Assembly: GCA_039586795.1 (NCBI GenBank)
Contig: JBDHJS010000011.1
Location: 70,793 to 134,792 of the forward strand
Origin: Gemmatimonadota bacterium
GTDB lineage: Bacteria > Gemmatimonadota > Gemmatimonadetes > Palauibacterales > KS3-K002
Reading direction: 5' to 3'
DNA length: 64,000 nucleotides
The translations under genes were made by a program, and so were the position numbers. The notes beneath the pieces were generated by a model. That model ran no database searches. It worked only from the letters and a program-made list of their open reading frames with translations, and was not told the DNA's origin. Position 1 is the first letter of the stretch. Each line of letters begins with the position of its first letter. Below, piece after piece: positions 1-37,834 of this stretch.

Positions 1-32
1 TCCACCGCTTAGATAAGCCCACTTGTAAGTGA

Positions 33-59
33 AGTGGGAGGGCGCGGAGCCCTCCCACT
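33..59 (-). terminator. Hairpin downstream of OmcE-like gene 1 (probable terminator)
   Basis: AGTGGGAGGGC-gcgga-GCCCTCCCACT, an 11-bp perfect stem 26 nt past the stop codon; U-tract is weak. Confidence 0.6.
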
Positions 60-85
60 CCGATTGCTGCTTCAGACTAAACTGA

Positions 86-787
86 CTACCCCTTCGCGTG
101 ACACGTCGTGCAGATCTGATCCTGCGACTTCGGGATGTTGAGCGAATGGGGGTTGTTGAACTTGTTATGAACGTCGTGGCAGCTCGAGCACTGCAGCTGC
201 CCACGGTCCAGCAACACTTCCTCCAGCGACCCAGAAACCACGTGGCCGTTGAAGGCGGTCAGATTCAGCGCCGTCGCCGAGGGCGCAACCAAGAACCCGT
301 CGGCCGTCGCGAGAGCGTCGTCATACACGAACGAAATCGGATGGGCATGGCTCAAGTCACCATTCTGCGGATGCGGAACCGTGTAGGTCGGGTCCGCCGG
401 CGCATACATCGCGCCCCATCCGTACTGATCGACGCCAACCGTACCGTCATGGCAGCTCAGGCACAGAATCGCCGTGCCCGTCGGCTGACCCACGGTGGCC
501 GCGCCGTCAAACGTCTCACTCTGAACGGCGTCGTACATCACATACGACGTGGTCGTCGACAGCTTGTGGAACCACAGCGGCTGGCCGACGCCCGGGGTGT
601 GAGCGTTGTGGCACACCGTGCACATATCCTCGCCGCCCACGTTCCAGGTGCCCTCACCCGTGTCGTACGAGCTAGGATTGTAGTGTGTGACCCCGTCACT
701 GAAGTCGTGCCCTGAGCCGGAGAACTGCGCCTGCGCCGGTGCGGCGACGAACAGCACAGCCAGCCCAATTAACCAGAGCTTCTTCAT
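86..787 (-). CDS. Secreted tetraheme c-type cytochrome, OmcE-like (paralog 1)
   Basis: Sec signal MKKLWLIG...AQA; four CxxCH (CTVCH, CLSCH, CSSCH, CTTCH); motif order HDFS / CxxCHxxH / CLSCHDG / DLSxxHPI / CxxCHDVH / terminal CxxCHxK; RBS AAGGAG favours ATG 787 over 811. Confidence 0.85.
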   Translation of the reverse strand: MKKLWLIGLAVLFVAAPAQAQFSGSGHDFSDGVTHYNPSSYDTGEGTWNVGGEDMCTVCHNAHTPGVGQPLWFHKLSTTTSYVMYDAVQSETFDGAATVGQPTGTAILCLSCHDGTVGVDQYGWGAMYAPADPTYTVPHPQNGDLSHAHPISFVYDDALATADGFLVAPSATALNLTAFNGHVVSGSLEEVLLDRGQLQCSSCHDVHNKFNNPHSLNIPKSQDQICTTCHAKG

Positions 788-853
788 TGTTTGGTCTCCT
801 TTGGATCCCATTGCTGCGAGCCGGGTTCTGGTCGTTCCCGGCCCAGTTAAAAG

Positions 854-887
854 TCCGGTTGGGGCTTAGTTACTTCCGGTTGGGGCT
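854..887. repeat. 13-bp direct repeat TCCGGTTGGGGCT, 21-bp period, upstream of paralog 1
   Basis: Identical copies at 854-866 and 875-887. Confidence 0.8.
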
Positions 888-1449
888 GACTACAACGGTC
901 GTTTACAACTTCCGTTTCAGTGCCTCTTCCGGCTCCTCCTTTCTTACTCGTCGGCCCGCAGATCTAACGGGGTCACGTTCCTTGATACACAACGGCGCCC
1001 GCCGGATCAGGTAGGGGGAGAGCGGTGCAATACGCATCCGTTGCCGCACAGCTCCCGAAACCGGGGGCGCCCTCAGCATGACAGGCCGCGAGTGGTCGTG
1101 GGTCCTCTCCGATGGCCCCGGCGTGCCACGCTCCCGGAGCCAAACCCATTTCCTGAATGGGCATTTCCTCAAGCAGATGTCGTACCAATCTGGGGTGGAA
1201 AGAACCACGTGTCCCAAACCGTCCGATTGGCCAGCACCGTCCGTGTAAGGCTAACAAGAATAACTATTTAGAGAGATTGCCCTGAAGGTGCGATATGTCC
1301 CGGCGAAGCGAGGCGTTCATGCCACGTGTCGCCCTGCCTCAACGACGGCATCCGCGTTGTGGCAATACGTCACGTCGTATCAACAAGCGTTCTCGATAAG
1401 CGGTGTTGGTCAGCCCCACGGCCTGATATCACCTGACCAAAGACGTCGA

Positions 1450-1475
1450 GCCCCGACAGCTTGCGCTGTCGGGGC
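1450..1475 (-). terminator. Hairpin after the 14-heme cytochrome gene
   Basis: GCCCCGACAGC/GCTGTCGGGGC 11-bp stem; loop reads GCAA (GNRA) on the minus strand. Confidence 0.65.
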
Positions 1476-1507
1476 CCGCCCTCCACCCAGTCCTCGAACC
1501 AGAGGAT

Positions 1508-3427
1508 CTAGAACCTTCCTCCATCGCCGTGGCGGTGGCAGTTGTAGCAGTTTTCCTTGCCCGTCATCGAGCTGCGATCGTGACAGGTGTTGCACCACCA
1601 CCCACCACTAGTCAGGTCGGCCTTGTCCAGGTTGTTGGTGATTCCGTATTCCCACTCGGCGGCGCCTTTGCGATCCCAAAACGCCAGCGCGGTGTCATCC
1701 GGCGCCATACCCAGCGTCTGATCGAGAACTCGGAACAAGGTCGTCGTGCCTATGCCGGCGCTCTGGTCGATGATCACGTGATTCGAATGGCACGACCAAC
1801 ACGGCATCACATCGCCTATGCCCCAGCCTATTCCGGCCCGCAGGTCCACACTCGAGCCGGTCCGAACTCCCATACCGTCGTTGACCCACGTCGTGCGGAT
1901 GTTCGTGATCGCCGTTGTCTGGTCCTGAACTGAGGACGGGAAGCTCCCATCATGACAGTCGAGACAGAATTCGCTGAGGATGTCTCCCGCCGACTGGTAT
2001 GCCGTAAAATACCAGTCCGTGCCGGGAATGTGGCCGTCGCTTGGATCGGGATCGATCAGGTACTTCTGCGCAGCGGTCAGCGTATGCGGATTATGGCAGT
2101 TCGTGCATTCAATCTTCGCCCCGCTACGGGCCTGTGCTGGCTGCTGGATGTCGTGTCGATCATTCAGGTTCGCGTTTGACCCCAGGCCGGTAGCCGTTTG
2201 GACCCAGTTGATCGCCCGCGCGAACCCGGTCGCCAGGTCGGTGGTTGCCGGGCCATCGGAGTCATGACAGTCGAGACAGAAACCCTCTTCTTCTTCGGTC
2301 CGCGTCGTGGGGTCGGGCGCGACGTCCCCAGGGGCGAGTATTCTGGCCTTTTGCGACCCGTGGCTCGCATGACACCCGAAACTGCCATCGCCAAAGCAGC
2401 CAACGATGGCCGCCGACTGTTTGTGGGAGGCGGTAGTCCACGCCGAGGCGTCGATTAGCGGGCGAGTCAATCCATCCGAGAACGGGGCGAGCGTTCCGTT
2501 CGCGCCATCTAGATCATGGCAAGAAACGCAGAACGCCTCCAGCTTCGCCGCCTCCGCCGACTGAGTTTGCGGGTCGCCCGTCAATATGTATACGGTCGTC
2601 GAATCATCCGCGTTCTTGAGGCGCACGTTACCCGCCTGGTGGGCGCTGAACTCGTGACAGACCAGGCAATCGCCATCCACGTACGACGCCCCGACATGGT
2701 TGCTGGCCCAGGACATCTCCGGAACGATCGGGCGGCGACTGTTCGGCCCGCTGGTGCCCTGCCCGCCCGTGTCGTGGCAGCTCCCGCACGGTCCGCCCCC
2801 GGCGAATCCGCTCTCGTGAGTGTGACAATCGGTGCAGGTCCGCCCGACTTCGTGCGTATGGTCACTGACGTCCGGAAGGTTCAGCCCGTTCTGATGGTTA
2901 CTCGTCTCCGTATGGCACGCCTCGCACACACCATCGTAATCACCGTCTCCATCCTCGTCGCCGTCGGCGAACGAATGAAGCGATGGCTGCCCCGCATCGG
3001 TCCCGCGACTCGTAAACGACACGGGCAGATCACCACTCACCGGCGTCGTCATCATCTCGCGGATCATCGATAGGTTCGCGGCCGTCTCTCCTTCATGGTC
3101 GTGACAGTCCCAACAGCCCGTTGCCGCTCGGCCGAACTCGGTGTGTCGGGCTCCGTTGTGTACCTCGAACGGACCCTTCGGAACATCTACCCAGACTCCA
3201 TCCCGGTCGACCTGCGCCGGACCGGCATCGCTGTGGCACGACCAACAGAGATCTTCAACGACGTCGAATTCTCGCAGCGCGCTGAACGAGCCGCCGTGCA
3301 GGTCATGGCAAAAGCTGCAGTTGTGACTGATCTGCGCGTGTGCCGTCGCCGATTCCTGAAGCGCCGGAATGACGGGCGCGATGAGGCTCCACCCCACGAG
3401 TCCCAAGAGCCAGGCGATCGGCCTCAT
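1508..3427 (-). CDS. Large secreted multiheme cytochrome c (14 CxxCH plus one CX7CH)
   Basis: Signal peptide ending AHA-Q; 14 canonical heme motifs counted, plus CFGDGSFGCH; acidic DGDEDGDGDYD loop. Confidence 0.9.
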   Translation of the reverse strand: MRPIAWLLGLVGWSLIAPVIPALQESATAHAQISHNCSFCHDLHGGSFSALREFDVVEDLCWSCHSDAGPAQVDRDGVWVDVPKGPFEVHNGARHTEFGRAATGCWDCHDHEGETAANLSMIREMMTTPVSGDLPVSFTSRGTDAGQPSLHSFADGDEDGDGDYDGVCEACHTETSNHQNGLNLPDVSDHTHEVGRTCTDCHTHESGFAGGGPCGSCHDTGGQGTSGPNSRRPIVPEMSWASNHVGASYVDGDCLVCHEFSAHQAGNVRLKNADDSTTVYILTGDPQTQSAEAAKLEAFCVSCHDLDGANGTLAPFSDGLTRPLIDASAWTTASHKQSAAIVGCFGDGSFGCHASHGSQKARILAPGDVAPDPTTRTEEEEGFCLDCHDSDGPATTDLATGFARAINWVQTATGLGSNANLNDRHDIQQPAQARSGAKIECTNCHNPHTLTAAQKYLIDPDPSDGHIPGTDWYFTAYQSAGDILSEFCLDCHDGSFPSSVQDQTTAITNIRTTWVNDGMGVRTGSSVDLRAGIGWGIGDVMPCWSCHSNHVIIDQSAGIGTTTLFRVLDQTLGMAPDDTALAFWDRKGAAEWEYGITNNLDKADLTSGGWWCNTCHDRSSMTGKENCYNCHRHGDGGRF

Positions 3428-4371
3428 TTCGCAGCGACCCCCGGATAGACCTTCACCGATGCGCTGCGATTGCTCACCACTAAGACGTCGCCATTCTTCG
3501 TGATCAGTACGTCGGTGGGCACTCTCAGCTCGGGGCGGCCGCCGATCTCGCCCGTCAACTCCTTCGTTGCCCGGTCAAAGACCAACACCGTGCCCAACAA
3601 GGCATCCGCGACATAGATCCTGCCCCGGTCGTCCACCGCCAGACCCTGCGGTCGAGAGAACCCTCCCGGACAACTCATGCCGCAGCTCACCTCACCAGGG
3701 ATCTGATCGACATGGCGACCATCATAGTCGAAGATCTTGATCGAGGCGGCGCCGCCATCCACTCCCCAGTCGCTCACCAGCAACTCGTTCCGAGCGCCGT
3801 TCACGGCGATCCCCATCGGCGTGGCCAGCTGCTCAGGGCCGCTTCCCGGACTCGAGATCACGCGCTGCAAACCGCCCAGCTCGTCAAACACCCTCACTTC
3901 TCGAGCGCGCCCATCGAGTACGAATACCAGCCCCTGGCCGTCGTCTGCCGCCAGGTCGATCGGATACTCGACCGCTCCGGCGCCGAACGTGCCCGTTGCG
4001 CTTCCAGTTGTCGTCGAGAAGATCTCTACCGTTCGACGGGTACCGTTGCCCACGAAGATGCGATCGCCCAGAGCGACGACGCCCAACGCCTGGCCCGAGA
4101 CGGCTATGCCGCGGGCTGGGGTCTGCGAGGTGGGATCGATCTCCACCACCAGGTCCAGGCGACTGTCCGTCACCAGGACTTGTCCACCTGAAGTCAGCGC
4201 GAGCCGCAACGGCGATCTAAGAGTTATCGCGCCGAGCAAGCCGAAGGTGACTTCCTCCCCGCCTTCTTCACCCCCGGTGGGCGTTCGTTCCTCTCTCCAA
4301 CAGCCGTGCGTGAATAACAGCATGCTGGCGAGCAGGCTGAACAGCACTCCACGGAAGGAAAAGACTCTCAT
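3424..4371 (-). CDS. NHL-repeat beta-propeller lipoprotein
   Basis: Lipobox-like LFTHGC; repeats PIDLAAD, PMGIAVN, PQGLAVD..GRIYVAD, PTDVLIT; stop overlaps the cytochrome start (ATGA). Confidence 0.85.
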   Translation of the reverse strand: MRVFSFRGVLFSLLASMLLFTHGCWREERTPTGGEEGGEEVTFGLLGAITLRSPLRLALTSGGQVLVTDSRLDLVVEIDPTSQTPARGIAVSGQALGVVALGDRIFVGNGTRRTVEIFSTTTGSATGTFGAGAVEYPIDLAADDGQGLVFVLDGRAREVRVFDELGGLQRVISSPGSGPEQLATPMGIAVNGARNELLVSDWGVDGGAASIKIFDYDGRHVDQIPGEVSCGMSCPGGFSRPQGLAVDDRGRIYVADALLGTVLVFDRATKELTGEIGGRPELRVPTDVLITKNGDVLVVSNRSASVKVYPGVAAK

Positions 4372-4413
4372 CGGTATGCTACCCTCGATTTACGACCGTA
4401 CTCCGATAGGAAT

Positions 4414-4432
4414 TTGGCAAGTAGCCTGCCAA
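4414..4432 (-). promoter_or_regulatory. sigma54 (-24/-12) promoter for the NHL/14-heme operon
   Basis: Minus strand TTGGCAGGCTACTTGC gives GG-N10-GC with TTGC, about 45 nt upstream of ATG 4371; the site is near-palindromic. Confidence 0.6.
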
Positions 4433-4813
4433 GGAAGAAAGGAAGCGGAGTGCCATAAAAGGGAGAACGATTATTAATAGCGGTTCTGGGCACGAGAATG
4501 GACCGTAATGAGCCACGTCGAGACATGGTGAGTCGTTATGGCACACCGTTGCTTGACTAACGGGGCATCTGTGTACTCAACGTTACTTATATACAGGTGC
4601 GTCCATGGTCCGCGCTTGAGAATGATAATTATTCGCGTTCGATGTTCTTCCTGAAAGTTGTTCGCGATTTGCTTGTAGAGAGCGCGTTCTGCAACGACTC
4701 CCAGTCGACGAGGAGCGGTCAATTCGTCGGAACTTGCAGAGCCGATAGGGTCAAGATGTCCATATCGCTAGCCATAATCGTGAAAACGATCGCAGAGCTA
4801 CTTCAACTTTCAA

Positions 4814-4830
4814 TCGGAACGACTTTTGCA
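4814..4830 (+). promoter_or_regulatory. sigma54 (-24/-12) promoter for the OmcE-like operon
   Basis: TCGGAACGACTTTTGCA versus consensus TGGCACG-N4-TTGCW, with exact GG-N10-GC spacing. Confidence 0.6.
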
Positions 4831-5100
4831 CTCTGTCGCAGCACTCCCCTCCGCCTATGGCGACATGTCTGAAGCCGTGAATCCCTGGAAACAACTGAGA
4901 GTCTAGCAGGACAAGCCCTAATTGTAGGGCAAGCGCTGTTTACAGGTCCCCCGCTCCGCCCCGCCAGGTCTGTCTCCCGCCGATTCCCCTGGCCCTGTTA
5001 CAGCAGTTTGGACATTAGCCCGTGAGTACCGACCACTGAGACTCGACGCGGGACGCCGCGGGGCTCACGGATGATCAAACCCCGAGTTGAGGAGGGACCA

Positions 5101-5745
5101 ATGAAACGGTTGTTCAGCCTGATCACCGCCTTCATCCTGGCGGCGGCGACGACGGCGAGCGCTCAGCAGATTTCGGGTAGCGCGCACGACTTCAGCGCGG
5201 CTGCTTGGAACAGTACGGGAGAGATCTGCATCGTCTGTCACGCGCCGCATAACAATCAGAGCCCTGCCGGTGAACTAATTTGGAACCGCACTGCCAGTGC
5301 CGCGTCCTACACGATGTACTCGAACACTAGCGGGACATTCCAGGCGTCTGCCACGATCGCGGCGACGCCAAACGCGGAGTCCAAGGTCTGCCTGAGTTGC
5401 CACGACGGCACTGTCGCACTCGAGTCATTTGGCGGCAACGGTGCCGTAACGACGACGGTGATGGGCGACGTCAACGCAGCAGCGGACGTCGGGTCGGACC
5501 TGTCGGACGACCATCCGATCTCGTTCGACTACACGAACGCGCTTGCGACAAGCGACGGCGATCTGGCTACTCCGGGCGACAACGGTACCGCTCCCGATGG
5601 CAACATGCCGTTGTTCGGCGCGACCTATCGGATGGAGTGCGCCACGTGCCACGACGTGCACAACGATGTACCGGTTGGCAATGCCAGCCTGCTTTATGTG
5701 GACAACGCGGCCAGCGCGCTCTGTCTTACTTGTCACACCAAGTAG
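5101..5745 (+). CDS. Secreted tetraheme c-type cytochrome, OmcE-like (paralog 2; candidate nanowire subunit)
   Basis: Strong RBS GAGGAGG; signal ending ASA-Q; CIVCHAPH, CLSCHDG, GSDLSDDHPI, MPLF, ECATCHDVH, LCLTCHTK; exactly 4 non-motif His for 4 hemes. Confidence 0.9.
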   Translation: MKRLFSLITAFILAAATTASAQQISGSAHDFSAAAWNSTGEICIVCHAPHNNQSPAGELIWNRTASAASYTMYSNTSGTFQASATIAATPNAESKVCLSCHDGTVALESFGGNGAVTTTVMGDVNAAADVGSDLSDDHPISFDYTNALATSDGDLATPGDNGTAPDGNMPLFGATYRMECATCHDVHNDVPVGNASLLYVDNAASALCLTCHTK

Positions 5746-5809
5746 CACACGCATAGGGCGGAGCGTCATCGAGAGTTCGAGTCGCCAGTTACCGCCATAC
5801 GAGAGGCCA

Positions 5810-5830
5810 GGGGGCGCTCCGGCGCCCCTT
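5810..5830 (+). terminator. Intercistronic GC hairpin after the OmcE-like gene
   Basis: GGGGCGC-tccg-GCGCCCC followed by only TT; leaky terminator or mRNA stabiliser. Confidence 0.5.
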
Positions 5831-5862
5831 CGCCTTAACGCTCTAGACCAACAACTCGATCG

Positions 5863-6981
5863 ATGAACAGCCACCGACTGATCCCAGTAGTGCTACTCGC
5901 CGCTGCCGCTGGAACACTGCTGACGGCGTGCTCCTCGACTGCTCCAACACCGGAGCTAACCCAGCCGCGAGAGCTGATCGTCTACCCCACCCCACCGGAC
6001 ACACCACGTATCCAATTCTTGACACGTTATTCGACTTCAGCTGACATCGAGCCGGAGCGACGCAGGTCGATTTGGGAGTCGATTGCGGGTGAAGACGATT
6101 CGGCGAACGAAGAGAAGCAGATCGTCAAGCCTTACGGCGTGGCCATGGCGCAGGGCAGAATCTACGTCTGTGACACGGGCGCCATCGCGGTTGATATCAT
6201 AGACATCCCGGCGCAGTCGTTGTCTCGTTTCCAGCCCCGCAGTTTTGGCAAGCTCAGTAAGCCGCTTGGCTGCTTCGCAGACGAGTCCGACGGCTCACTA
6301 TTCGTCGCCGATGCTGATCGCCAGCAAGTTGTCGTTTATGGGAACGACGGATCCTATCGAGCCAGCTTCGGAGAGCGAGAGAGCATCCGACCGAGTGCCG
6401 TATTCGTCGTCGGTGACAGTATCTTCGCGGCCGATCTGAACGGACAGCGCGTCGCGGTCTACGCGCGCAGCGACCAGCGACTGCTGGGCTTCATTCCAGC
6501 CGACACGACCGACCCGGCGGCAAGGCTATTCGCTCCCACCAACCTGTTCGTCACTAACGATCACGTGTACGTGACGGACTTCGGGTCCTTCCAGGTGAAG
6601 ATCTATGACCGCAACGGTCGGTTCGTTCGGACACTTGGGCGCTATGGGTCCGGGCTTGGACAGTTCGTTCGCCCCAAGGGCGTGGCCGTCGATCGCAACA
6701 GCAACGTCTACGTCGTCGATGCGGGCTTCGAGAACGTCCAGGTGTTCGATGCAGAGGGCAAGCTGCTGATGTTCTTTGGCGGCCCATACGAGGGCCCGGG
6801 CGACCTGTACCTGCCGGCCGGGATCACCATCGACTATGAGAACGTCGACCTGTTCCGACACCTCGTTCATCCCGGTTTCCAACTCAAGTATCTCGTCCTC
6901 GTAACCAGCCAATACGGTCCCGACAAAGTCAACGTCTACGGCTTCATCGGCCCCGAGGAGACCCCGTCCCATGCGCCTTGA
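5863..6981 (+). CDS. NHL-repeat beta-propeller lipoprotein
   Basis: Lipobox LLTAC; KPYGVA..GRIYVCD, GQFVRPKGVAVD..VYVVD, LYLPAGITID. Confidence 0.85.
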   Translation: MNSHRLIPVVLLAAAAGTLLTACSSTAPTPELTQPRELIVYPTPPDTPRIQFLTRYSTSADIEPERRRSIWESIAGEDDSANEEKQIVKPYGVAMAQGRIYVCDTGAIAVDIIDIPAQSLSRFQPRSFGKLSKPLGCFADESDGSLFVADADRQQVVVYGNDGSYRASFGERESIRPSAVFVVGDSIFAADLNGQRVAVYARSDQRLLGFIPADTTDPAARLFAPTNLFVTNDHVYVTDFGSFQVKIYDRNGRFVRTLGRYGSGLGQFVRPKGVAVDRNSNVYVVDAGFENVQVFDAEGKLLMFFGGPYEGPGDLYLPAGITIDYENVDLFRHLVHPGFQLKYLVLVTSQYGPDKVNVYGFIGPEETPSHAP

Positions 6982-7849
6982 TACAGGCAAAACGCTCCTC
7001 GCCATCTGTCTTACCGTTGGCGCCCTTTCATGCCGCTCGGCCGCCGAATTGTTCCTCGACATCTCCGAGCCGCCGGGGAACGAGCAATATGCGCCGGCTG
7101 CTAACGTCAGTCAGTCGCAGAGCGTTATGTTAGCGGTTCCAACCGACACCGCCCGACCCCCGATCGAGAGTGTGGACGGCATGGACTCTGTGCTGGTCAT
7201 GCTGCCACAGGCGCCCGACGGAAGCATCGACTGGGTTACGGCGATTCGCGATACGGTAATCCGACCTCGGAACGCACCGCGAGGAGTTGGATCTGTTCGG
7301 GAGTCACTCAGTTTCGATTTCTACTTCGGTGAATTCGAGACCTACTTCCCCCATTCCGCCCACGCGGAGTGGATGGAATGCACCAGTTGTCACCCAACCA
7401 TCTATCGCCGCCGCGGTGCCTCAACATCGATGAAGGAGATCGGGGAAGGCCAGTCCTGCGGTCGCTGCCACGGAAGTGTTGCATTCTCCACTGCCGCCTG
7501 CGAACGCTGCCACACGGCAATGAAGTTGCCGGAAGGTCGCCAAAAGCCGAATCTCGGTGCCGTCTACACGTTCTCGCGCTCGGAGACCGCAACCAATATC
7601 GCGACCGACTCCGTCTTCCCGCCCGCGGTGTTCTCGCATGGCTTCCACCGTATACGCTATACCTGCGCGGCTTGTCACAACGATCTGTTTCCCATGGCGC
7701 GCAGCGCGCCCGGAACGGTGACGATGAAGTCGATTCAAAATGGTGAGGCATGCGGGACGTGTCATAACGGTTCGACCGCGTTCGGCGTTCTGCAGTGCGG
7801 GCTCTGCCATCAGAAGGTCGAAAGCGACTCCGAGGGCAGTGGACCGTGA
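6971..7849 (+). CDS. Hexaheme c7-type cytochrome lipoprotein (two triheme domains)
   Basis: Lipobox GALSC; two repeats of FxHxxH..CxxCH..M..I..G..CGxCH..AF..CxxCH; six CxxCH. Confidence 0.85.
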   Translation: MRLDTGKTLLAICLTVGALSCRSAAELFLDISEPPGNEQYAPAANVSQSQSVMLAVPTDTARPPIESVDGMDSVLVMLPQAPDGSIDWVTAIRDTVIRPRNAPRGVGSVRESLSFDFYFGEFETYFPHSAHAEWMECTSCHPTIYRRRGASTSMKEIGEGQSCGRCHGSVAFSTAACERCHTAMKLPEGRQKPNLGAVYTFSRSETATNIATDSVFPPAVFSHGFHRIRYTCAACHNDLFPMARSAPGTVTMKSIQNGEACGTCHNGSTAFGVLQCGLCHQKVESDSEGSGP

Positions 7850-9771
7850 ATCGTCTGCAGTTCTTGACGGTTTGTGGACTTGCGGCGCTACTCACCGCCG
7901 GAGCGCGAGCGTCACCGGCACAGCACGTCATCAAGCTATCGCGGACCGGCGGTATCGTTGGATTGGAGTTTGATGGCTACAGTCTTCAGAACTCCTCTGG
8001 CTTCCACGATGGCCAACGGACCTTTCGCGAATACGTCAATCTTCAAATAACAGGGTCAGTACTCGACCCCCGGGTCCTGCTCTTCGACGTCGGCCTTAGA
8101 CCTCGAATAGAACAGACCTCGTGGAACGCCACCTACGAGTCATCGAGTGGCGGCTCCACGAACCTCGACGCCCGACTGGCCGCCCACCTGTTCAGCCGCG
8201 GCAAGATCTCGCTTCAGGCAGAGGCGATGCGCCTCTCGAACAACGCGCAAGTGCGCTTTGATGAAGAACAGAGCGTTTCCTATCAAGAGCTGCGACTGCG
8301 CCTCAACACCAGGTTCAGGCCCCTTCCCCTGTGGATCGAGCTTCGAAACCTGCAAAACAACCTCGATTTCTCTCGACCCCAGGGCGTCAGTCTCATGCGT
8401 GACGAGCAGAGTCGCTCTGTTTGGATGCGTGCTCAGAACAGCAAGACCTTTCTTGAATACCAGCACGTTGATTTCTCGGACAACCTGTACGACCGGAGAG
8501 TCGTCACCGACAGGGCTACCGCCACGCACCATATGGGTTGGGGCAAAGGTAGCAGTCTACGCTCGATTCTCACTTATTCTGATCGAGCGGGCGTTGGTCC
8601 GTTTCGCCGATTCGCTTGGAACGAATACGTCAACATCCGGCACACGCTTGACGTTCAGACTGATCTACGCTTCCGACTCTTCGACCAGGTTAGCCGCGGC
8701 CTGAAATCGAAAGGCTGGTTCGTCGATCTTCGACCGCAAACCAGACTGGCCAGAGAAGCCCACGTCGCGTTGAGTGGCCTGGCGGAACGGCGACAGTATG
8801 CGCTCGTAGACTTTCGACGTTATGAACTGAAACCGATGGCCGACGCCGCTTTCGATTTGCCTGCCGGCATGAGACTCATCGCCTCCGGCGCGGTGGGTTA
8901 TCGCTGGCAAGTCCAGTCGGCCGACGAAGCATCCGTCGGAGACGTGCTGGATGAACGGCACGAGGTCGACCAGTTCGGTCGGTTCATCCTCGATGAGATT
9001 TCGGTGATCTCGAGTTCCGTGCTCATCACCAGCGAAGACCGTTCCGTCGTTTTCGAGGAGGGGATCGACTACCAGATCTTTGAGCAGGGTCCGCGCACCG
9101 AAGTACTGTCCCTACCCGGAGGTCGTATACAGCCGCAGGACATTGTTCTGGTAAGCTATAGTTTCCGCCTCATCGATGATCTGAGCTCGGACGCTCTACT
9201 CGCCAACTACAACGTCAATCTCCAGCTTGGCCCACTCGCCTTCTTCAACCATATGAACCTGGTGGATCCAGCTCAGCAGAGTTCACCCAGGGCTCCAGGT
9301 TCGCCAGGCTATTACCAGAATTTGCAGGCGGGAGTTGCCTATCAAAGTCGTACTCCTTTCGGATCGGTAGACGTCAGGGCCGAGTACGATGCGACAACCA
9401 CCGATGCGATCACGTATCAGATGTTCCGCGTACGGGCAACGTTGTCGGCACGACTGCTTAGAGGGATGGGCAGCACCGTCGGCGTGGCATGGCAGAACGG
9501 CCTTGCTGACCGCGGGCGTCCAATCTCGCGCCTCGATGCAAATGCAGCGGTCAACTGGAGTCCTATCCCCCGCCTCGCACTCGTTGGCGCCCTGACGGCC
9601 TACAGGGGACACGCCGATTTTCAACGAGATACGTTCCTCGGCTTCGGTCTCGGTGCCGAGTGGAGCCTGCGGCGACTTCGCATGTTCGCCAGGTACGACT
9701 ATCGGTCATGGGACACCCGGACTCAGCAACAGGAAAGCCGTATCCGAACCGGCATAGCACGATTCTTCTGA
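7846..9771 (+). CDS. Outer-membrane beta-barrel protein (candidate porin or secretion channel)
   Basis: GTG start overlaps the upstream stop (GTGA); signal peptide ending ARA-S; alternating amphipathic strands; C-terminal Phe (GIARFF). Confidence 0.75.
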   Translation: MNRLQFLTVCGLAALLTAGARASPAQHVIKLSRTGGIVGLEFDGYSLQNSSGFHDGQRTFREYVNLQITGSVLDPRVLLFDVGLRPRIEQTSWNATYESSSGGSTNLDARLAAHLFSRGKISLQAEAMRLSNNAQVRFDEEQSVSYQELRLRLNTRFRPLPLWIELRNLQNNLDFSRPQGVSLMRDEQSRSVWMRAQNSKTFLEYQHVDFSDNLYDRRVVTDRATATHHMGWGKGSSLRSILTYSDRAGVGPFRRFAWNEYVNIRHTLDVQTDLRFRLFDQVSRGLKSKGWFVDLRPQTRLAREAHVALSGLAERRQYALVDFRRYELKPMADAAFDLPAGMRLIASGAVGYRWQVQSADEASVGDVLDERHEVDQFGRFILDEISVISSSVLITSEDRSVVFEEGIDYQIFEQGPRTEVLSLPGGRIQPQDIVLVSYSFRLIDDLSSDALLANYNVNLQLGPLAFFNHMNLVDPAQQSSPRAPGSPGYYQNLQAGVAYQSRTPFGSVDVRAEYDATTTDAITYQMFRVRATLSARLLRGMGSTVGVAWQNGLADRGRPISRLDANAAVNWSPIPRLALVGALTAYRGHADFQRDTFLGFGLGAEWSLRRLRMFARYDYRSWDTRTQQQESRIRTGIARFF

Positions 9772-10598
9772 TGGCTCGATCGACTCGACCGCTGAATCTG
9801 CTGCTGACCCTGGCCCTGCTATCTGCTGTCCAGGTGCCTGCGTTCGCCCAGCACGACGACATCTCCGTCACCACTCCAGAGAGGTCATCAAGTGGCTGCG
9901 TGTTGTGTCACGCGTCGCACGATGCCGGGCCAACCGTCAAGAGCCTACGCATTGATCCCTTGGTCGCATCCGAATACTCAGCCGCCGGCCTCTCTCCCGC
10001 ATCTCTCAGTTGCCTGCGATGTCATTCCACGTGGAGCGCCCGGCTGCGACAACCGGAGTACGTCAACTTGGGAGTGGCTCCATCCCCAGGCGGAAAGCTC
10101 TTCGGGACCTATCTGCAGGACGATCATCCGGTAGGCGAAGCTTCGCGCCCCGGGCTACCCATGAGGGGAGACGACGCGGATCCATGGTCTAGTTCCGTCG
10201 GGATTGGAAGCGTCGTTCCGAGCCCCGGGACCCACGTACCCGAGTGCAACACCTGCCACGACCCCCATTCTCGCAACGGGCTTCTCATCGCACCCGAGGA
10301 GGAGCATTTCTTCTGCGGCGCGTGCCACGACAGGACTCAGGCCTCATCGACCACGCATACAAACGTCCCCTGCACTGGCTGTCACGCCCTCCACAACGCA
10401 TCCTCGACCAAACTTCTGGCGGAACATGATGTCGACCGGCTCTGCCTCTCCTGTCACACTGCCGCTGGCGTTCCCTCCCTGTCACGCAACTACTCCGAAC
10501 GCCGAGCCGAGCTACTAAGCATGCTGGCAGTTCCACGAACGAACATGCATGGCGAGTCGCGTTCCGATCGCTGCACGGGCTGCCACCTGCCTCACTGA
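9771..10598 (+). CDS. Heptaheme c-type cytochrome with an OmcE-like N-terminal module
   Basis: TGATG coupling to the barrel gene; signal ending AFA-Q; seven CxxCH; SLSCLRCH..DDHPV..ECNTCHDPH pattern. Confidence 0.85.
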   Translation: MARSTRPLNLLLTLALLSAVQVPAFAQHDDISVTTPERSSSGCVLCHASHDAGPTVKSLRIDPLVASEYSAAGLSPASLSCLRCHSTWSARLRQPEYVNLGVAPSPGGKLFGTYLQDDHPVGEASRPGLPMRGDDADPWSSSVGIGSVVPSPGTHVPECNTCHDPHSRNGLLIAPEEEHFFCGACHDRTQASSTTHTNVPCTGCHALHNASSTKLLAEHDVDRLCLSCHTAAGVPSLSRNYSERRAELLSMLAVPRTNMHGESRSDRCTGCHLPH

Positions 10599-10719
10599 AC
10601 ACCAGCACTCTGCACCAAAAACGCCGCGGCAACTGCGCTCACGCGGGAGCGGTCGACGGCCGAGCTTCGTAAGTGCTACACTATTTGACTTTGGCTGATC
10701 GTGCCGCGATGTTGCAGCT

Positions 10720-10810
10720 GTAGAGAAGACCGAAGCCCCGGTCGTTAAAGGGTCCTTTTGGAAGACGTTTCATTGGTCCCTCCTCAACGGCGGCCGGGGC
10801 CTATTCTTTT
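10720..10810 (+). ncRNA. Candidate antisense sRNA against the OmcE-like gene translation start
   Basis: TTGACT-N17-GATGTT upstream; closing stem 10735-10744/10791-10800 followed by CTATTCTTTT; 10766-10788 is the exact reverse complement of 5086-5108. Confidence 0.65.
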
Positions 10811-10904
10811 GAAGTACGACCTCCCTCCCTCATCTGAGACCACCGCACTCGTTGGTGGTAGGTGGCCCTCAGGCTGACACGCATAGCAGCATACCCGGTA
10901 GTGA

Positions 10905-14255
<3,351 letters not shown>

Positions 14256-14302
14256 AAAGTGGGGAGTAGGGGGTGGTGGGTGATCCGGCTCCCCCTACTC
14301 GC

Positions 14303-15694
14303 CTAATGCTTGTCGAAATCGGCGACGAACGCTCGCAATACGTTTGCGTCCTCGGCGTAGTGTGTCCACAGGCACGCGACGCGACCGTCGTAGGCGCTGA
14401 TGCCGTTGTAGTCTCCGAAGAAGCGGTCCGTCTGCGGCTCGAACGGCTCGTCGCTGATCCGATACTCCTCGAACGATCGCCCGCCGTCCGTCGAACGCGC
14501 CAGGTAGACGTGGACGCCCTTGCCGTCTCGTGCCCGACGATCGTAGTAGACGATGTTGACGCTGCCATCCACCGGATCGACGCTCATCCAGGTGAAGAAC
14601 TGTGCTCGGTTGTTCTTCAGCCTGTCCTGGTTGACCCGTAACGGCTCGCTCCAGGTGACGCCGTGATCTGTGGAGCGGGATAGGAACACGTCGGGGTCGC
14701 CGTGCCGCTCGTCGACCCAGTTCACGTAGACCGTGCCGCGGTGTAAACCCTCCGATATGTCCACCGCTGTGACCGGCATGCCGTTGGCCCGAGGCGTCCC
14801 CTCGATCTCGATGTCCCAGCCGCCGGGCTGCTCGAGGATGGTCCACGCATCCTTCCAGCTCGCTCCGCCATCCTTCGATAATGTGAACTCGATGCCCCGG
14901 GGACCGCTCCATGCCATGTACACCGTGCCCTCGGGTCCCGCCGCCGGGACCGCGCCCTCCACCGTGTCGTCGCTGTCCACCGCGTCGCCGCCAGGCGCCG
15001 GTATCCGCTGCGGCCGCGAAAACGTGCGCCCACCGTCGTCAGATCGCACGACATATATAAAGGATGAGTCCCGCGGCGAGTCGCTGCCGTAGCGGGTGAA
15101 GCGAGTCCATGCGATGTAGATGCTGCCCTGGTACGGACTGTCCTTGGAGAGATCGATTCCTGGATAGGGCTTGTCCTCGAACGGAACGATGCTGTTCAGA
15201 TGCTCGACCAGGATAACTTCGTCGCCGTAGCTCAGGCCGCCATCGTCCGAGGCTCGCAGAAAGAGACCATTGCGCGGATAGACGCCCTCCGGATTCCGAA
15301 GGTGGCGGAAGCCCAGGTAGCTGCGATAGACCCGGCCTTCATGGTCGATCACGACCGCATCGTCGCCCTGCACCTTGTCCGCTGGGTTGGGCATGGCAAC
15401 GGATGTCCAGGTCTTGCCACCATCCCACGATACGTAGGTGAAGTTGCTGATCTTCCACCCGTTCCAGACGCGCAGCGTGACCACCGCCGAACCGACGATG
15501 TGGTTCACATTCGTCGGGTCGATGGCGATCGCCGTCTCAACAGCGCTGTGTGGTCCGGTCGTCACGGCGACCGGGGCCGGTAGGTCTCGCGCCAACCCCG
15601 CTTCCGGCGGTTGCGGGGTCTGGGCGCTCGCCGTTGCCGTGAAGGCACCGGCGAGCGTCAGGGTCATGCAAAGGGCCAGAAACCGCCGGAGCAT
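14303..15694 (-). CDS. Secreted BNR/Asp-box repeat (sialidase-like) protein
   Basis: Repeated SxDGGxTW/F boxes; C-terminal FFGDYNGI; signal peptide from MLRRF with RBS GGAGG. Confidence 0.8.
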   Translation of the reverse strand: MLRRFLALCMTLTLAGAFTATASAQTPQPPEAGLARDLPAPVAVTTGPHSAVETAIAIDPTNVNHIVGSAVVTLRVWNGWKISNFTYVSWDGGKTWTSVAMPNPADKVQGDDAVVIDHEGRVYRSYLGFRHLRNPEGVYPRNGLFLRASDDGGLSYGDEVILVEHLNSIVPFEDKPYPGIDLSKDSPYQGSIYIAWTRFTRYGSDSPRDSSFIYVVRSDDGGRTFSRPQRIPAPGGDAVDSDDTVEGAVPAAGPEGTVYMAWSGPRGIEFTLSKDGGASWKDAWTILEQPGGWDIEIEGTPRANGMPVTAVDISEGLHRGTVYVNWVDERHGDPDVFLSRSTDHGVTWSEPLRVNQDRLKNNRAQFFTWMSVDPVDGSVNIVYYDRRARDGKGVHVYLARSTDGGRSFEEYRISDEPFEPQTDRFFGDYNGISAYDGRVACLWTHYAEDANVLRAFVADFDKH

Positions 15695-15696
15695 CG

Positions 15697-17955
15697 TCAC
15701 TCCTCCGTCTCCGACGCCTGCGGCCCGGCCGGCATGTTCTCCATCAAGTAGTTGGTGAGCAGCGTGTACAGATGCAGCGTCGTGCCGCGACCTTCGTAGA
15801 TGCCGTGCGAACGGTTTGGGTACGGCATGATCGTGAACTGCTTGCCCGCCTCGACCAGCGCGTTGACCAACACCTCGGTGCCCTGATAGTGGACGTTGTC
15901 GTCTCCCGTACCGTGCACGATCAGAAGATTCCCTTGCAGCCGATCGGCAAACGTCACCGGCGACGACTGCTCGTACTCCGTCGGGTTGTCTTGGGGCAAC
16001 CCCATGTACCGTTCCTGATAGATCGTGTCGTACAGCCGAACGTCCGGTACCGGCGCGACGGCCATCGCCGTGCTGTAGAAATCCGGGTAGCGGAAGATCA
16101 TGTTGAGGCTCATCGAGCCGCCACCGCTCCAGCCCCAGATGCCGATCCGCGCCGGATCGACGTGGGACCACTGCCCAACCGCACGCGCGGCAGCGGCCTG
16201 ATCGAACGAGGCGTGGACACCGATCTTCTTGTAGACGACCTTGCGCCAGTCGCGACCGCGCGGCGCCGGCGTACCCCGATTATCGATGCTCATCACGATA
16301 TAGCCCTGCTGCGTCAGCATCAGATGCCACAGGTAGTTCCTGCCCATCCACGCGTCACGCACCGTCTGTCCCCACGGCTCGCCATAGACATAGAACAGGA
16401 CGGGGTATTTCTTCGACGGGTCGAAATCCGGCGGCCGCATCTCGAACCCATCCAGCATCACGCCTTCACCGTTGTCCACGCGGAAGAAACGCGACTCGCC
16501 GCGGTCCAGCGACTCGATCGTCGCCCGCAGTCGTGCGTTGTCGACCAGCGTTCTCACCACCTCATGGTCCGGCAATCTTACCAGCTCGATGATCGGCGGC
16601 GTCATGAAGCTCGAGTAGGTGTGGAAGGCGAAGCGCGCATCGCGCGAGATCTGATACGAGTGGGTGCCCGGCTGACCGGCGGGCGTCAGGCGTTCGGCCC
16701 TCCCGCTGCCGTCCAGCGGTGTGCGATACAGGTAGCGCTGCTTCGGATCGTCCGGTGACGCGATGTAGTAGAGCCAGCCGCCGTCCTCGTCGATGTGCTG
16801 AACGCTCACGATGTCGTAGTCGCCCGGCGTGATCAGCTGCATGTCCTGCCCATCTCGAGATATTATGTAGACATGCCGCCAACCGTCCCGCTCGCTCACC
16901 CAGGTGAAGCGCTTCCCATCGTCCAGCCATTCCAGATCCTCGACGACGTCGAGCCAGGCCTCATCCGTCTCGGTTACTATCGTCCGCGCTTCGCCGCTGC
17001 TCGCCTTGGCCAGCGTGAGCCAGTTCGTGTTCTGTAGGCGGTTCAAGTGCTGGATTACGACTTCGTCCGAATCGTCCGCCCACTCCATGCGCGGGATGTA
17101 GTTGTTCCGCGGATCGCCCTCCATCCCGATCCAGCGCGTATCACCGCCATCAGCGCTGACCACACCGACTTTGACGGCTGAGTTGGTTTCGCCGGCCTTC
17201 GGATACGGGAACTCGATAAGCCTCGGATAGAGCGAATCCGTGTTGTTGATCATCGTGAACCACGGCACGCCCTCGGTGTCGAACTGCCAGTAGGCGATCC
17301 GTTCGCCGTTCGGACTCCAGCGGAAGCCGTCGCGCAAAAAGAACTCTTCTTCGTAGACCCAATCGGACGTCCCGTTGACGATCCACTCCGATCCGTCATC
17401 GGTAAGCGCGATGATCTCGCCGCTCTCCAGGTCTTCGACGTAGATATTGTTCTCCTGGACATAGCCTACTCGGCCACCATCCGGCGAGAACTTGGCGAAC
17501 ATGAGCGTCGCCTCTTCGGCATCGCCGCCTACCTGGCGGAGCGCGCCCGACCCGAGATCCAGCACCCAGTAGTCGCCCCGCGTGTTCGATCGCCATACGC
17601 GCCGCGTATTGGTGAAGATCAGCAGCTTGGATCCGTCGTCCGACCATTGATAGCCGGAGATCCACAGCGGTTGCCTGGCACCTGCCGGCGTCAGCACCGC
17701 CGCCGAGACCAGAACTTCTCGAGCGCCCGTCTCGGGATCGTATTTCACGATCTCGCGGGCCCGCCGGTTGGCAGTGAACTCCAGGGTCGTGTAGCTGCCG
17801 TCCTCCATCCAGCGGGCCGGCCCGAAGAACTGGCCACTGAAATCGGCGGAGGCGAAGATCCGCTCAAGGGCGAGCTCTGACGGCTGCTGCGCTAGCAGCG
17901 ACGTGGCGAGCAGCATCAGGATCAGGACCGCGAAGGTCGTACGAATGCGATTCAC
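15697..17955 (-). CDS. S9B dipeptidyl-peptidase IV family protein
   Basis: DWVYEEE, GWSGGG nucleophile elbow, HGTGDDNVH, C-terminal HGI; GTG start with RBS AAGGAG. Confidence 0.92.
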   Translation of the reverse strand: MNRIRTTFAVLILMLLATSLLAQQPSELALERIFASADFSGQFFGPARWMEDGSYTTLEFTANRRAREIVKYDPETGAREVLVSAAVLTPAGARQPLWISGYQWSDDGSKLLIFTNTRRVWRSNTRGDYWVLDLGSGALRQVGGDAEEATLMFAKFSPDGGRVGYVQENNIYVEDLESGEIIALTDDGSEWIVNGTSDWVYEEEFFLRDGFRWSPNGERIAYWQFDTEGVPWFTMINNTDSLYPRLIEFPYPKAGETNSAVKVGVVSADGGDTRWIGMEGDPRNNYIPRMEWADDSDEVVIQHLNRLQNTNWLTLAKASSGEARTIVTETDEAWLDVVEDLEWLDDGKRFTWVSERDGWRHVYIISRDGQDMQLITPGDYDIVSVQHIDEDGGWLYYIASPDDPKQRYLYRTPLDGSGRAERLTPAGQPGTHSYQISRDARFAFHTYSSFMTPPIIELVRLPDHEVVRTLVDNARLRATIESLDRGESRFFRVDNGEGVMLDGFEMRPPDFDPSKKYPVLFYVYGEPWGQTVRDAWMGRNYLWHLMLTQQGYIVMSIDNRGTPAPRGRDWRKVVYKKIGVHASFDQAAAARAVGQWSHVDPARIGIWGWSGGGSMSLNMIFRYPDFYSTAMAVAPVPDVRLYDTIYQERYMGLPQDNPTEYEQSSPVTFADRLQGNLLIVHGTGDDNVHYQGTEVLVNALVEAGKQFTIMPYPNRSHGIYEGRGTTLHLYTLLTNYLMENMPAGPQASETEE

Positions 17956-18061
17956 GTGATTCTCCTTCGTTGGTTTGTTGAGGGCCGCGCGAAATCTACC
18001 CCGGGGCCGGGTTTCGCGCACCTGCTGAGATGGGGAGAATCCTAGGAGAACTGAGGAGTTC

Positions 18062-18093
18062 GAGGGGCGACCCGCCTTAGCGGGTGGCCCCTC
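18062..18093 (-). terminator. Hairpin downstream of the PilX-like gene
   Basis: GAGGGGCGACCCGC-ctta-GCGGGTGGCCCCTC. Confidence 0.55.
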
Positions 18094-18101
18094 AGATCTT
18101 T

Positions 18102-20327
18102 CTAATACGCTTCACGCATCGCGGTGCGGAACACGTATCCTACGTTCGGCGTGCCCGGAGGCAGGTTCGCGGGGTCGCGAAAATCGATATCGAACGCCCA
18201 GTTGCGCTGCGGGGGCGTATAGTACGTCCCGTTCCAGGTGCCCGTCGTCTTCTGACTGGTGAACGGGCTAATCAGCGAGCCCAGGTAGTTGAAGTCCACC
18301 TTATTGCTGCCATTCCGCCAGTGCTCAAGGAAGCGGGGGAAGTTCTCGAGACCGCCGCCATACCAATCCTTGTAGTAGGCGGTCGAGCCGTCGGCGGCGC
18401 ACGATGTTTCGTGATGATCGCAGGGAGTTGCCCAATGCCCGGCCAGGATGGCGCCGTTCACCGTAGTCTCGCTCGAGCTCTGCTTCTTCCACTTGGGCTG
18501 CCATTTCGTGTACTCGATACACGGGTTGGTCCAGCTCACAAGACCGGTGCATGTGTCGATGTCGTTCTGCGCAGGCCGATTGTCCGCATCATCCCAAGCG
18601 TTCGACAGAATCGTTATGCCGTCACCCATGAGTGAGGTGGACTTCTTGTCGATCGAGTTGTAATCGCCGCGTACGTAGAGCGGCCACTCTGTAGCGACGG
18701 TCAACCGGTTGGGGAGCAGCGAGCCGTTTACCAGTCGAACCGCCGGATCTACGGTGGCGTCCGGCAAGTAGTCGCGGGTTACCGGCGCGTAATTGCCGAC
18801 CTCCGCCGGAACGAGGAACTCGACGTAGACAATCTCCGTCTGACGAGCCGTGCTCACCGCCTCCCACGCAGCCAGCTGCGTCATGTCTATGTTGAGAACG
18901 TCCTTCAGTTCAGTCTCGCGTCCGTCGTAAAAATCCGACCATTCCCACTGAAAGATCTTGCACATGTCGGTTTGGGACAGTGCTTCCCCGCCCATGGACC
19001 GGTCGACCGTGATGTTCGGCCATAGCCTATCGGCCTCCGCCATCACGCTCAGCAAGTCGTGCCAGTAGGCCGTCCCGTCTACACCTTCACCGTCATTATC
19101 AGCGCCTAACACCTCAACGCGGATGCCATCGACGGCGCTGGGAATGTCAACCTTGAACCTGCACTCCCCAATCAGCTCTTTCGAATAGACCGTCGCACCG
19201 TCCGCGTATACTGTGACGTCTGCATTAAAACCGTCGCAGTTCACGCCCAGGATCTTGAAATCCACGCTGTTCCCTGGGATGACCGGGTCCAAGGCAGTGA
19301 TCGACAACACGCCGTCAACGGCATCCGGATCGTACTTGGGCGGAGTACCACCACAGACGTCGCCCAGCGTCCTGACGTTCACGAGATCCACTGTCACGTA
19401 AGTGTCAGCTTTCCAGGCCAGCTTGATCTGCCTTTCTGCCTCGCTGTCATCACCTTCCCGCGGTCGAATCACCTCATAGGCTGGTGTTCCCAGGGGGAGC
19501 GGAATGCGCAGTGAGTCAACGTCAAAAGCGCCCGTCATGACGCGGCAATCGAATGCCGAACAACTCTGAGCCTTGAACGCTTCGGGATCCGAGTACGTCC
19601 GGCTATCGAAATTCAAGGCAATTTCATTACCGCTGGCGTCGTTGATGAACACGCCGTTCTTGACGCTGTGAAAGTCCTTGCGGTCGTGGAATATCTCATT
19701 CGGGGTGGTGATGATGTCCCTGTACCAGGCGTTGTTTGAGCTCAGGTAGATGTTCCCGTTCGAATGAACTCGACCGAGAAACTCCATCGGCGGCCCGTTG
19801 GTCGCTTCCAGATCCTGTTCGAAGAACACGCCGAACTGGAAGATCGGGATCGCTTGCGCTTTTGCCCTCAGGATGATCGCCGAGCGGTCGCCCAACGGGT
19901 TCTTCGCCGAGGAGTAGATGTCGACGTTTTGCGTTAGCGCGTTGAGTCCCGCGTATGGACCGTCGGTCACAGTCTCGACGATGGCGTCGCCTAACCTCTC
20001 GACGTAGAAGCTGTCGAATTCGATGTAACTCAGAGTCGGCGGATTGATGTTGAGCAGATCGGCGTCCGAGAGATGGCCGTCAGATAGCATCGCCTTCAGC
20101 TGGGCCAGCGTCGCTTCGCCACCCGCCTCCGCCGCGTAATAGACCCGCGTGTCCTGGTAGTCGCTTCCTGATGTGCGAAGCGCGCTTACCGCTCCATTCA
20201 GCGCCGCCGCCGTCAGCATCGCCACCAACGCGATCAACATCAACGTCGCGATCAGAGCGAGCCCGCTACGGTCCTCAAGGTGCCGCAGCTCGATCAGTTG
20301 TTTGGCTGGTCTCCGCAACCTGTCCAT
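18102..20327 (-). CDS. Large PilX/GspK-type minor pilin (pilus assembly protein)
   Basis: Class III-like signal RSG|LALIATLMLIALV without Glu5; YYAAEAG; GRVHSNG; C-terminal GGLENFPRFLEHW..PPQRNWAFD. Confidence 0.75.
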   Translation of the reverse strand: MDRLRRPAKQLIELRHLEDRSGLALIATLMLIALVAMLTAAALNGAVSALRTSGSDYQDTRVYYAAEAGGEATLAQLKAMLSDGHLSDADLLNINPPTLSYIEFDSFYVERLGDAIVETVTDGPYAGLNALTQNVDIYSSAKNPLGDRSAIILRAKAQAIPIFQFGVFFEQDLEATNGPPMEFLGRVHSNGNIYLSSNNAWYRDIITTPNEIFHDRKDFHSVKNGVFINDASGNEIALNFDSRTYSDPEAFKAQSCSAFDCRVMTGAFDVDSLRIPLPLGTPAYEVIRPREGDDSEAERQIKLAWKADTYVTVDLVNVRTLGDVCGGTPPKYDPDAVDGVLSITALDPVIPGNSVDFKILGVNCDGFNADVTVYADGATVYSKELIGECRFKVDIPSAVDGIRVEVLGADNDGEGVDGTAYWHDLLSVMAEADRLWPNITVDRSMGGEALSQTDMCKIFQWEWSDFYDGRETELKDVLNIDMTQLAAWEAVSTARQTEIVYVEFLVPAEVGNYAPVTRDYLPDATVDPAVRLVNGSLLPNRLTVATEWPLYVRGDYNSIDKKSTSLMGDGITILSNAWDDADNRPAQNDIDTCTGLVSWTNPCIEYTKWQPKWKKQSSSETTVNGAILAGHWATPCDHHETSCAADGSTAYYKDWYGGGLENFPRFLEHWRNGSNKVDFNYLGSLISPFTSQKTTGTWNGTYYTPPQRNWAFDIDFRDPANLPPGTPNVGYVFRTAMREAY

Positions 20328-37762: not shown

Positions 37763-37834
37763 ACATTGAACATTGAGCACGGCACATTGGACATTGACAA
37801 TGTTGAATGTGCCGTGCTGAATGTTCATTGTTCA
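37760..37834. repeat. 75-bp palindrome built from ACATTGA-type heptamers between convergent cydB and GH47 genes
   Basis: TGAACATTGAACATTGAGCACGGCACATTGGACATTG and its near-perfect inverse; the arms contain both stop codons. Confidence 0.85.

Follow-up and report, generated by a model that had tools for sequence, protein, structure and literature searches.

A conserved hairpin complementary to the translation start of an OmcE-like cytochrome gene, a candidate small RNA in a family of Gemmatimonadota

Small RNAs (sRNAs) that act at ribosome-binding sites (RBSs) come in several kinds. RsaE, RepG and CJnc190 are Hfq-independent and C/U-rich: a single-stranded anti-Shine-Dalgarno (anti-SD) motif pairs with G-rich RBSs, and several targets are possible for the same RNA. 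In Vibrio cholerae, CarZ and OppZ are cut from mRNA 3' untranslated regions (3' UTRs) by RNase E, and they require Hfq (PMC7398697). The type I antitoxins OrzO and OhsC use 18-19 nt of uninterrupted complementarity, OrzO and IstR-1 being Hfq-independent, while OrzO requires RNase III (PMC3919570). As for extracellular electron transfer, sRNAs have been proposed to tune the corresponding genes in Geobacter soli and Shewanella oneidensis, with targets that are short computed pairings (PMC6013743, PMC13634483), and omcE is not in the sRNA target table given for G. soli (PMC6013743). The cluster that encodes the OmcE nanowire has been described (PMC13712944, section 8) as comprising OmcE, beta-propeller proteins, multiheme cytochromes and a large protein presumed to form a beta-barrel. 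Our search of the literature, which left most subscription papers and bioRxiv supplements outside its reach, gave, among the papers it listed, no antisense or small RNA regulator of omcE or omcS translation; within that incomplete coverage it agrees with an earlier reading of the DNA, made from the sequence only, whose author knew of no such regulator for cytochrome filaments.

The locus considered here lies in a stretch of 64,000 nucleotides, analysed as a whole and called the window, on contig C79 of a Gemmatimonadota genome (G000, 4.68 Mb, 97.8% complete). Its relevant features, in window positions, are these:

86..787, minus strand: second OmcE-like paralogue with four CxxCH motifs, head of a second cluster
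5086..5108, plus strand: target site, made of the SD sequence GAGGAGG (5089-5095), a spacer, the ATG (5101-5103) and the following codons of the omcE-like gene
5101..5745, plus strand: OmcE-like tetraheme cytochrome of 214 aa with four CxxCH motifs, the predicted target and first gene of its cluster
5863..10598, plus strand: remaining cluster genes, coding for an NHL beta-propeller, a c7-type cytochrome, a 658-aa protein and a multiheme cytochrome
10685..10690, plus strand: -35-like box TTGACT of the predicted sRNA promoter, where TTGACTTT is invariant in the four known sequences of the element while adjacent bases have diverged
10708..10713, plus strand: -10-like hexamer GATGTT after a 17-nt spacer, below the threshold of a consensus scan
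10720..10810, plus strand: predicted small RNA of about 90 nt, its start placed from the -10 box and its end from the U-rich tail
10735..10800, plus strand: hairpin with a GC-rich closing stem (10735-10746 with 10789-10800) and a weak, variable inner helix
10766..10788, plus strand: antisense arm of 23 nt, with an invariant 14-nt core (10775-10788) of which the 3' part, CUCAAC, is predicted to be single-stranded

The arm at 10766-10788 is 100% complementary to 5086-5108. The two arms, 23 nt each, stand 5657 nt apart, their complementarity breaks off abruptly at either end, and no further copy of the 23-mer exists in the 4.68 Mb of G000 at up to 3 mismatches. The sequence-only reading was thus right in seeing an exact reverse complement, and right also in placing it on the SD sequence, the start codon and the next codons of a tetraheme gene 5.7 kb away, as coordinates and the four CxxCH motifs confirm. 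The hairpin copy is intergenic, with the last cluster gene (ending at 10598) before it and a beta-galactosidase gene behind it. A chance origin had been held implausible, and this judgement is upheld by two counts. Only 12 of the 3488 SD-bearing candidate starts of G000 have an exact copy of at least 23 nt elsewhere that spans SD and start, and the remaining 11 turn out, upon inspection of the list by eye, to be overlaps of contig ends, longer duplications or a simple repeat of dispersed occurrence. At distant omcE-like loci the best own-strand antisense match is at most 12 nt in 52 of 52, with no antisense element nearby. An assembly artefact at the hairpin copy, a concern raised at the outset, was checked as well: a single contig of the public run X1 covers 10469-10966 with no difference, which argues against misassembly, with the reservation that X1 is possibly the source sample. 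The window stretch is present in sediment runs from several studies.

The predicted target belongs to a recognizable family. The open reading frame (ORF) at 5101-5745 aligns nearly end to end with PDB 7TFS (E 6e-26), which we take to be the OmcE of G. sulfurreducens. Its alignment with PDB 9YUQ (E 4e-30), the OmcE nanowire model of D. soudanensis (PMC13712944), is full-length. Further along, the 658-aa protein has no Pfam hit, and its size and position suggest a beta-barrel. With OmcE, beta-propeller, multiheme and large putative barrel genes, the region 5101-10598 has the gene content of the OmcE nanowire cluster described in PMC13712944 and would specify a filament, predicted here from the genes; it differs from the latter in belonging to another lineage and in that G000 has two clusters back to back. 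The second complete cluster, with the same omcE-NHL-c7-barrel-multiheme order, occupies the other strand (C79 ~66200-71500, or L041:14175-19433), and an NHL gene shared by both, together with a gene for a 639-aa multiheme protein, lies between the two. The RBS of the paralogue that heads it (86-787) is unmatched by the sRNA, the duplex reaching just -14.7 kcal/mol, and its start region has no 14-nt copy elsewhere in G000. Homologues of omcE were found in 9 of the 31 genomes of the family, with a gene order that is mostly kept; in G018 and G012, glycosylation genes come after the cluster.

The hairpin element is known as four distinct sequences, three of them from as many genera of one family (G000, G018 and G003) and the fourth from a metagenome contig, L072. 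The G018 copy came from a DNA search of 41 genomes and is 86% identical to that of G000 over 75 nt; the G003 copy was added by a covariance model, which also matches G018 and L072, and the L072 copy by a pattern scan of metagenomes. All four share TTGACTTT, a GC-rich closing stem of 12-13 bp and the 14-nt core GGUCCCUCCUCAAC. The distance from the TTGACT box to the core is 87-92 nt throughout, and a -10-like hexamer with A at position 2 and T at position 6 follows in every copy after a spacer of 16-18 nt. By comparison, G000 and G018 align at 382 of 681 columns across the omcE coding sequence and at 31 of 80 in the leader immediately before the target site, and a long branch separates the two operons in the operon tree. 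The element is better conserved than the coding sequences. Its distribution is narrow. A refined covariance model returned the same 3 of 31 family genomes and no further carriers; the first RNA model had no true match in 114 genomes of the sister family, where weak matches in G089 and G093 were rejected as short terminator hairpins devoid of the core; the exact pattern was absent from 400 other genomes of the phylum and from viral contigs. Among the 31 matches of the metagenome scan, three are the element (L072, L079 and L090), L079 and L090 agreeing with the G018 copy over the part compared; L082, truncated where its contig ends, falls in neither group, and the other 27 were dropped as chance.

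In all four sequences the element is intergenic, while its surroundings vary. In G000 it lies 5.7 kb from its target, in G018 17 kb, and it remains linked to the omcE region in both. The G018 copy stands 11.5 kb past the operon, beyond the glycosylation genes and between two minus-strand ORFs, and would therefore need a promoter of its own; L072 has the same neighbours as G018. In G003 the element precedes a methyltransferase-like ORF, 160 nt from the contig start. Since the downstream gene is different in each case, the element is not a leader. G012, which groups with G018 as its sister in the tree of operons (100/100), is without the stretch of about 1.8 kb that carries the element.

Folding favours the strand that would be transcribed. 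On the plus strand, 10716-10815 has a folding energy of -38.2 kcal/mol (z -2.7), a stability that no shuffle out of 200 attains, and the minus strand of the same interval is unremarkable (z -0.9); the plus strand is the better folder in all four copies. The imperfect hairpin reported from the sequence thus stands, with a closing stem that is 12 bp long in G000, G:U pairs included, rather than the 10 bp first counted, and 13 bp in the four-sequence consensus. The U-rich tail is there, but it is short and weak. As for the promoter, the TTGACT box of the proposed TTGACT-N17-GATGTT site is conserved in every copy, but a consensus scan for promoters and terminators called neither that site nor the hairpin, so that the case for a promoter is one of conservation, not of consensus. 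The closing helix is 98% paired across the four sequences and both sides have changed in 2 of its 13 pairs; with as few as four sequences this covariation is not significant (56 of 500 shuffles). In predicted folds the CUCAAC end of the core is clearly unpaired in three copies and partly so in G003. No Rfam 15 family matched, be it at E<=5 in positions 1-20000 of the window or at E<=1 in the G018, G003 and L072 loci. The left arm of the hairpin resembles the sense sequence of the target, as the left arm of any hairpin with this right arm would, which makes the likeness no evidence for an origin by inverted duplication. Right behind the G000 hairpin, a second C/U-rich, anti-SD-like run (10820-10834) is not kept in G018. 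In run X2, two contigs carry insertions within the antisense arm (at 10774 and 10787 of the window), which suggest that more variants of the element exist among sediment relatives.

Pairing energies point to the omcE start. It ranks first among the 3488 candidate starts of G000, with a duplex at -49.4 kcal/mol (mean -18.9, sd 4.3), and when the cost of opening both RNAs is included the net binding is -17.7, to be compared with -2.5 +/- 2.0 for 200 random SD+ATG sites. The G018 RNA forms 16 uninterrupted pairs on the RBS of its own omcE, then a bulge and a G:U pair across the AUG; this duplex reaches -44.0, the next best site of the 25-kb contig -32.7, and the exact central 12-mer of the target has just two places in G018, the omcE RBS and the element. 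Placed on the G018 target, the G000 RNA does about as well (-45.0) as the RNA of G018 itself. The search of homologous clusters for a hairpin changing in concert with the cytochrome RBS, advised by the sequence-only reading, turned up in G018 a hairpin together with its own target, but the two element-target pairs available for comparison (G000 and G018) display no compensatory change, since core and target are both invariant. In predicted folds and in sequence, this 14-nt core with its unpaired CUCAAC fits the omcE RBS of both genomes.

The target site itself varies with the presence of the element. The core match at the omcE RBS is 14 of 14 in the two genomes that have both element and target, whereas it falls to 12 (G005), 11 (G011), 10 (G012) and 9 (G020) of 14 where the slot running from the operon to the BNR/DPP IV genes is assembled and lacks the element, a pattern which, the genomes being related, is no statistical test. 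The sister-family genome G030 was left out of this comparison, its RBS being cut by a contig end. G010 (14/14) and G017 (13/14) have near-perfect target sites with no element found, and in both the slot is unassembled; G002 has no element, and its omcE start is unassembled. More generally, no antisense element was present in the fetched regions of G005, G011, G012, G017, G020 and G002, and the best match in G010 (-36.1) was rejected because it lies within a coding region. A G011 hairpin (L052:1440-1545, on C468) has a 12-nt match to its own omcE RBS; it scores with neither model, stays within chance, has no Rfam match and was not counted. As for G003, a 71% complete assembly, neither omcE nor the NHL gene was found in it, nor any exact 12-mer target.

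How does this locus relate to the systems evoked above? It resembles CarZ and OppZ in that an sRNA from the distal end of an operon base-pairs where translation of one of its genes begins, this gene being the first for CarZ, as would be the case here; by contrast with what PMC7398697 reports of these RNAs, a promoter box of its own is conserved, the G018 gene is off the operon and Hfq was not found. With OrzO, OhsC and IstR-1 it has in common a separate gene near the target, long uninterrupted pairing (as in OrzO and OhsC) and, presumably, Hfq independence (as in OrzO and IstR-1). It differs from them, as depicted in PMC3919570, in several ways: a 214-aa cytochrome takes the place of the small toxin as target, pairing falls directly on SD and AUG, the antisense stretch lies inside the RNA, partly sequestered, instead of at its 5' end, and RNase III, which OrzO requires, was found in none of the 31 family genomes. 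In the sRNAs proposed for G. soli and S. oneidensis, a conserved long antisense to the RBS of a filament subunit, as seen here, does not appear in the passages of PMC6013743 and PMC13634483 that describe them. On the features tested the element falls outside the Hfq-dependent, the 3' UTR-derived and the type I antitoxin groups, and what it resembles in its likely mode of action is a trans-encoded sRNA that blocks translation. A C/U-rich single-stranded motif facing a G-rich RBS is also the hallmark of RsaE, RepG and CJnc190, from which it is set apart by a much longer pairing (23 nt) and by having no match in Rfam.

A plausible course of events may be proposed. A sigma70-type promoter would drive an RNA of about 90 nt that folds into a single long hairpin, protected by its GC-rich base, with the CUCAAC end of the core left unpaired. 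This end would act as a toehold, nucleating on the bases at the 5' edge of the omcE SD; pairing would then displace the weak inner helix and extend across SD and AUG, over 23 bp in G000. With SD and AUG covered, ribosomes would not load on the first gene of the OmcE cluster, polarity on the downstream genes being possible by analogy with CarZ, and in G000 read-through of the operon may add a feedback component. The pairing being long, an RNA chaperone would be unnecessary. Neither Hfq nor ProQ (PF17209, PF04352) was found in G000, nor a Piwi domain. RNase III was found in none of the 31 family genomes by PF00636, in a search where controls scored in 8 of 14, nor in G000 by PF14622, and this makes a steric block more probable than cleavage of the duplex. 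That Hfq, ProQ and RNase III went undetected fits a long, chaperone-free pairing with a steric block.

We regard this as a real, conserved and hitherto undescribed RNA element, and most likely it is an sRNA repressing the OmcE nanowire subunit. In our opinion omcE translation is probably blocked by an independently transcribed RNA of about 90 nt, and this in a lineage where searches for Hfq, ProQ and RNase III found none. The G018 copy, detached from the operon and still pairing with its own omcE start, speaks against a 3' UTR, an invertible repeat and the relic of a gene start alike. The main competitor is of another kind: the sRNA would be real but a general anti-SD regulator, with omcE as one of several targets and not the reason why the RNA was kept. 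The core does include the anti-SD-like CCUCCU, G003 has the element while omcE went undetected there, and the RBS of a gene for an SSS sugar transporter (L154:7336-7360, that is G000:C30:67335-67359) is a second strong candidate target in G000, at -47.8 (net -16.1) and widely separated from the next site (-35.6). Yet this RBS is mismatched in the five orthologues with a readable start (-17 to -26), and as the genomes of the latter have no element, while no close orthologue was found in G018 or G003, the match cannot be shown to be conserved; it may be a second target gained in G000 or a chance resemblance between strong SD sequences. As omcE is moreover the sole exact 12-mer target in G018, and its linkage to the element is kept in G000 and G018, we see a general regulator as rather unlikely. 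In G000 the transporter gene is divergent from xylose-isomerase-like and FGGY kinase genes. The second candidate target, together with a G003 assembly that carries the element without omcE, does leave uncertain the word "dedicated" in the trans-acting sRNA of the sequence-only reading; its trans-acting nature gains support from the conserved box, stem and core, from the target in G018 and from the drift of target sites where the element is absent.

Could the hairpin rather be the 3' end of the omcE operon mRNA, acting on the first gene after processing in the manner of CarZ and OppZ, or by folding back? In G000 it lies about 120 nt past the last gene, on the same strand and with no terminator called in between. 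Two exact contigs of the RNA run X19 (10343-10602 and 10602-10783), at a depth of 2.5-3.4, strandless and without ends, reach out of the last gene as far as the hairpin; were they RNA, they would suggest that transcription runs on past the operon, but with a depth as low as that of pieces elsewhere in the stretch they may be DNA. Here as elsewhere the read data are assembled contigs only, and gaps in coverage were not used. Such co-transcription is possible in G000 only: in G018 it is excluded by opposite-strand neighbours, the upstream gene pointing away there and in L072, and the promoter box is conserved in G000 as well, which makes the operon mRNA, an alternative raised from the sequence, a quite unlikely explanation. 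It is very unlikely that the hairpin serves a protein as guide or scaffold, either Argonaute-like or a nuclease-dead RNA-guided repressor, acting on DNA or RNA at the omcE start: a perfect 23-nt arm facing an imperfect partner does look like a guide precursor, but the Piwi domain is missing from G000, the flanking genes vary between carriers with none effector-like, and pairing in G018 depends on a G:U pair and a bulge, which suits RNA:RNA contacts. The perfect inverted repeat around the whole G000 cluster had also evoked the ends of an invertible 5.7-kb segment (5086-10788). This is extremely improbable, for in G018 the repeat is imperfect, held by G:U pairing and 17 kb apart, no recombinase family occurs among the 9 + 37 C79 proteins scanned, all from beyond the first 52 kb of the contig, none of the 15 joints listed from four runs, as contigs only, changes strand, and a repeat would explain neither the stem nor the promoter box. 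Hardly credible, finally, is the idea that the element is, on the minus strand, what remains of the start of a third paralogue, or else an ORF of 30 codons. The G000 minus strand does have a 30-aa ORF starting from the matching ATG, and two relatives bear a second omcE paralogue right before lacZ, but the latter lies on the plus strand, identity stops sharply past 23 nt, and the element is conserved above coding sequences. Above all, three of the four copies (G018, G003 and L072) have no ATG in register after the core, so that the element is neither a small ORF nor a relic start, a reading that the unkept start codon largely refutes.

The two relatives just mentioned deserve a remark of their own. 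In G002 (L038:5228-5470) and G010 (L010:1100-1240) the second paralogue occupies the position of the G000 hairpin, and its leader comprises a conserved promoter-like stretch and a short inverted repeat in cis, which could pair over the GTG start. Elsewhere in the window, long self-complementary repeats (40850-41032, 42480-42684 and 37760-37834) surround a pair of genes for an amino-acid permease and an amidinotransferase-like protein, and comparable simple-sequence palindromes recur between genes throughout G000. Pieces of a GH3/Fn3-like gene are duplicated as well, 46308-46898 being 73-84% identical to 49187-49448 and 50231-50530.

To return to the sRNA that would repress omcE, a bolder picture is possible, though we hold it only tentatively and with more doubt than belief. 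It would be a self-sufficient hairpin of a new class, reminiscent of a microRNA precursor, with a perfect guide arm, an imperfect partner and an exposed toehold. Of the two nanowire clusters that lie back to back, it would be the dedicated off-switch of one, needing neither Hfq nor ProQ nor RNase III, and would thereby select the filament that is made. Should repression by this RNA be true, cytochrome nanowires would have a sequence-specific sRNA switch on their subunit, with a target site known to the base. The pair would be directly testable, in an uncultured sediment lineage where our literature search found no sRNA study. Antisense control would then be workable in bacteria in which searches for the usual RNA chaperones and for RNase III found none, and the locus suggests that these bacteria may regulate OmcE filaments tightly, telling two paralogues apart.
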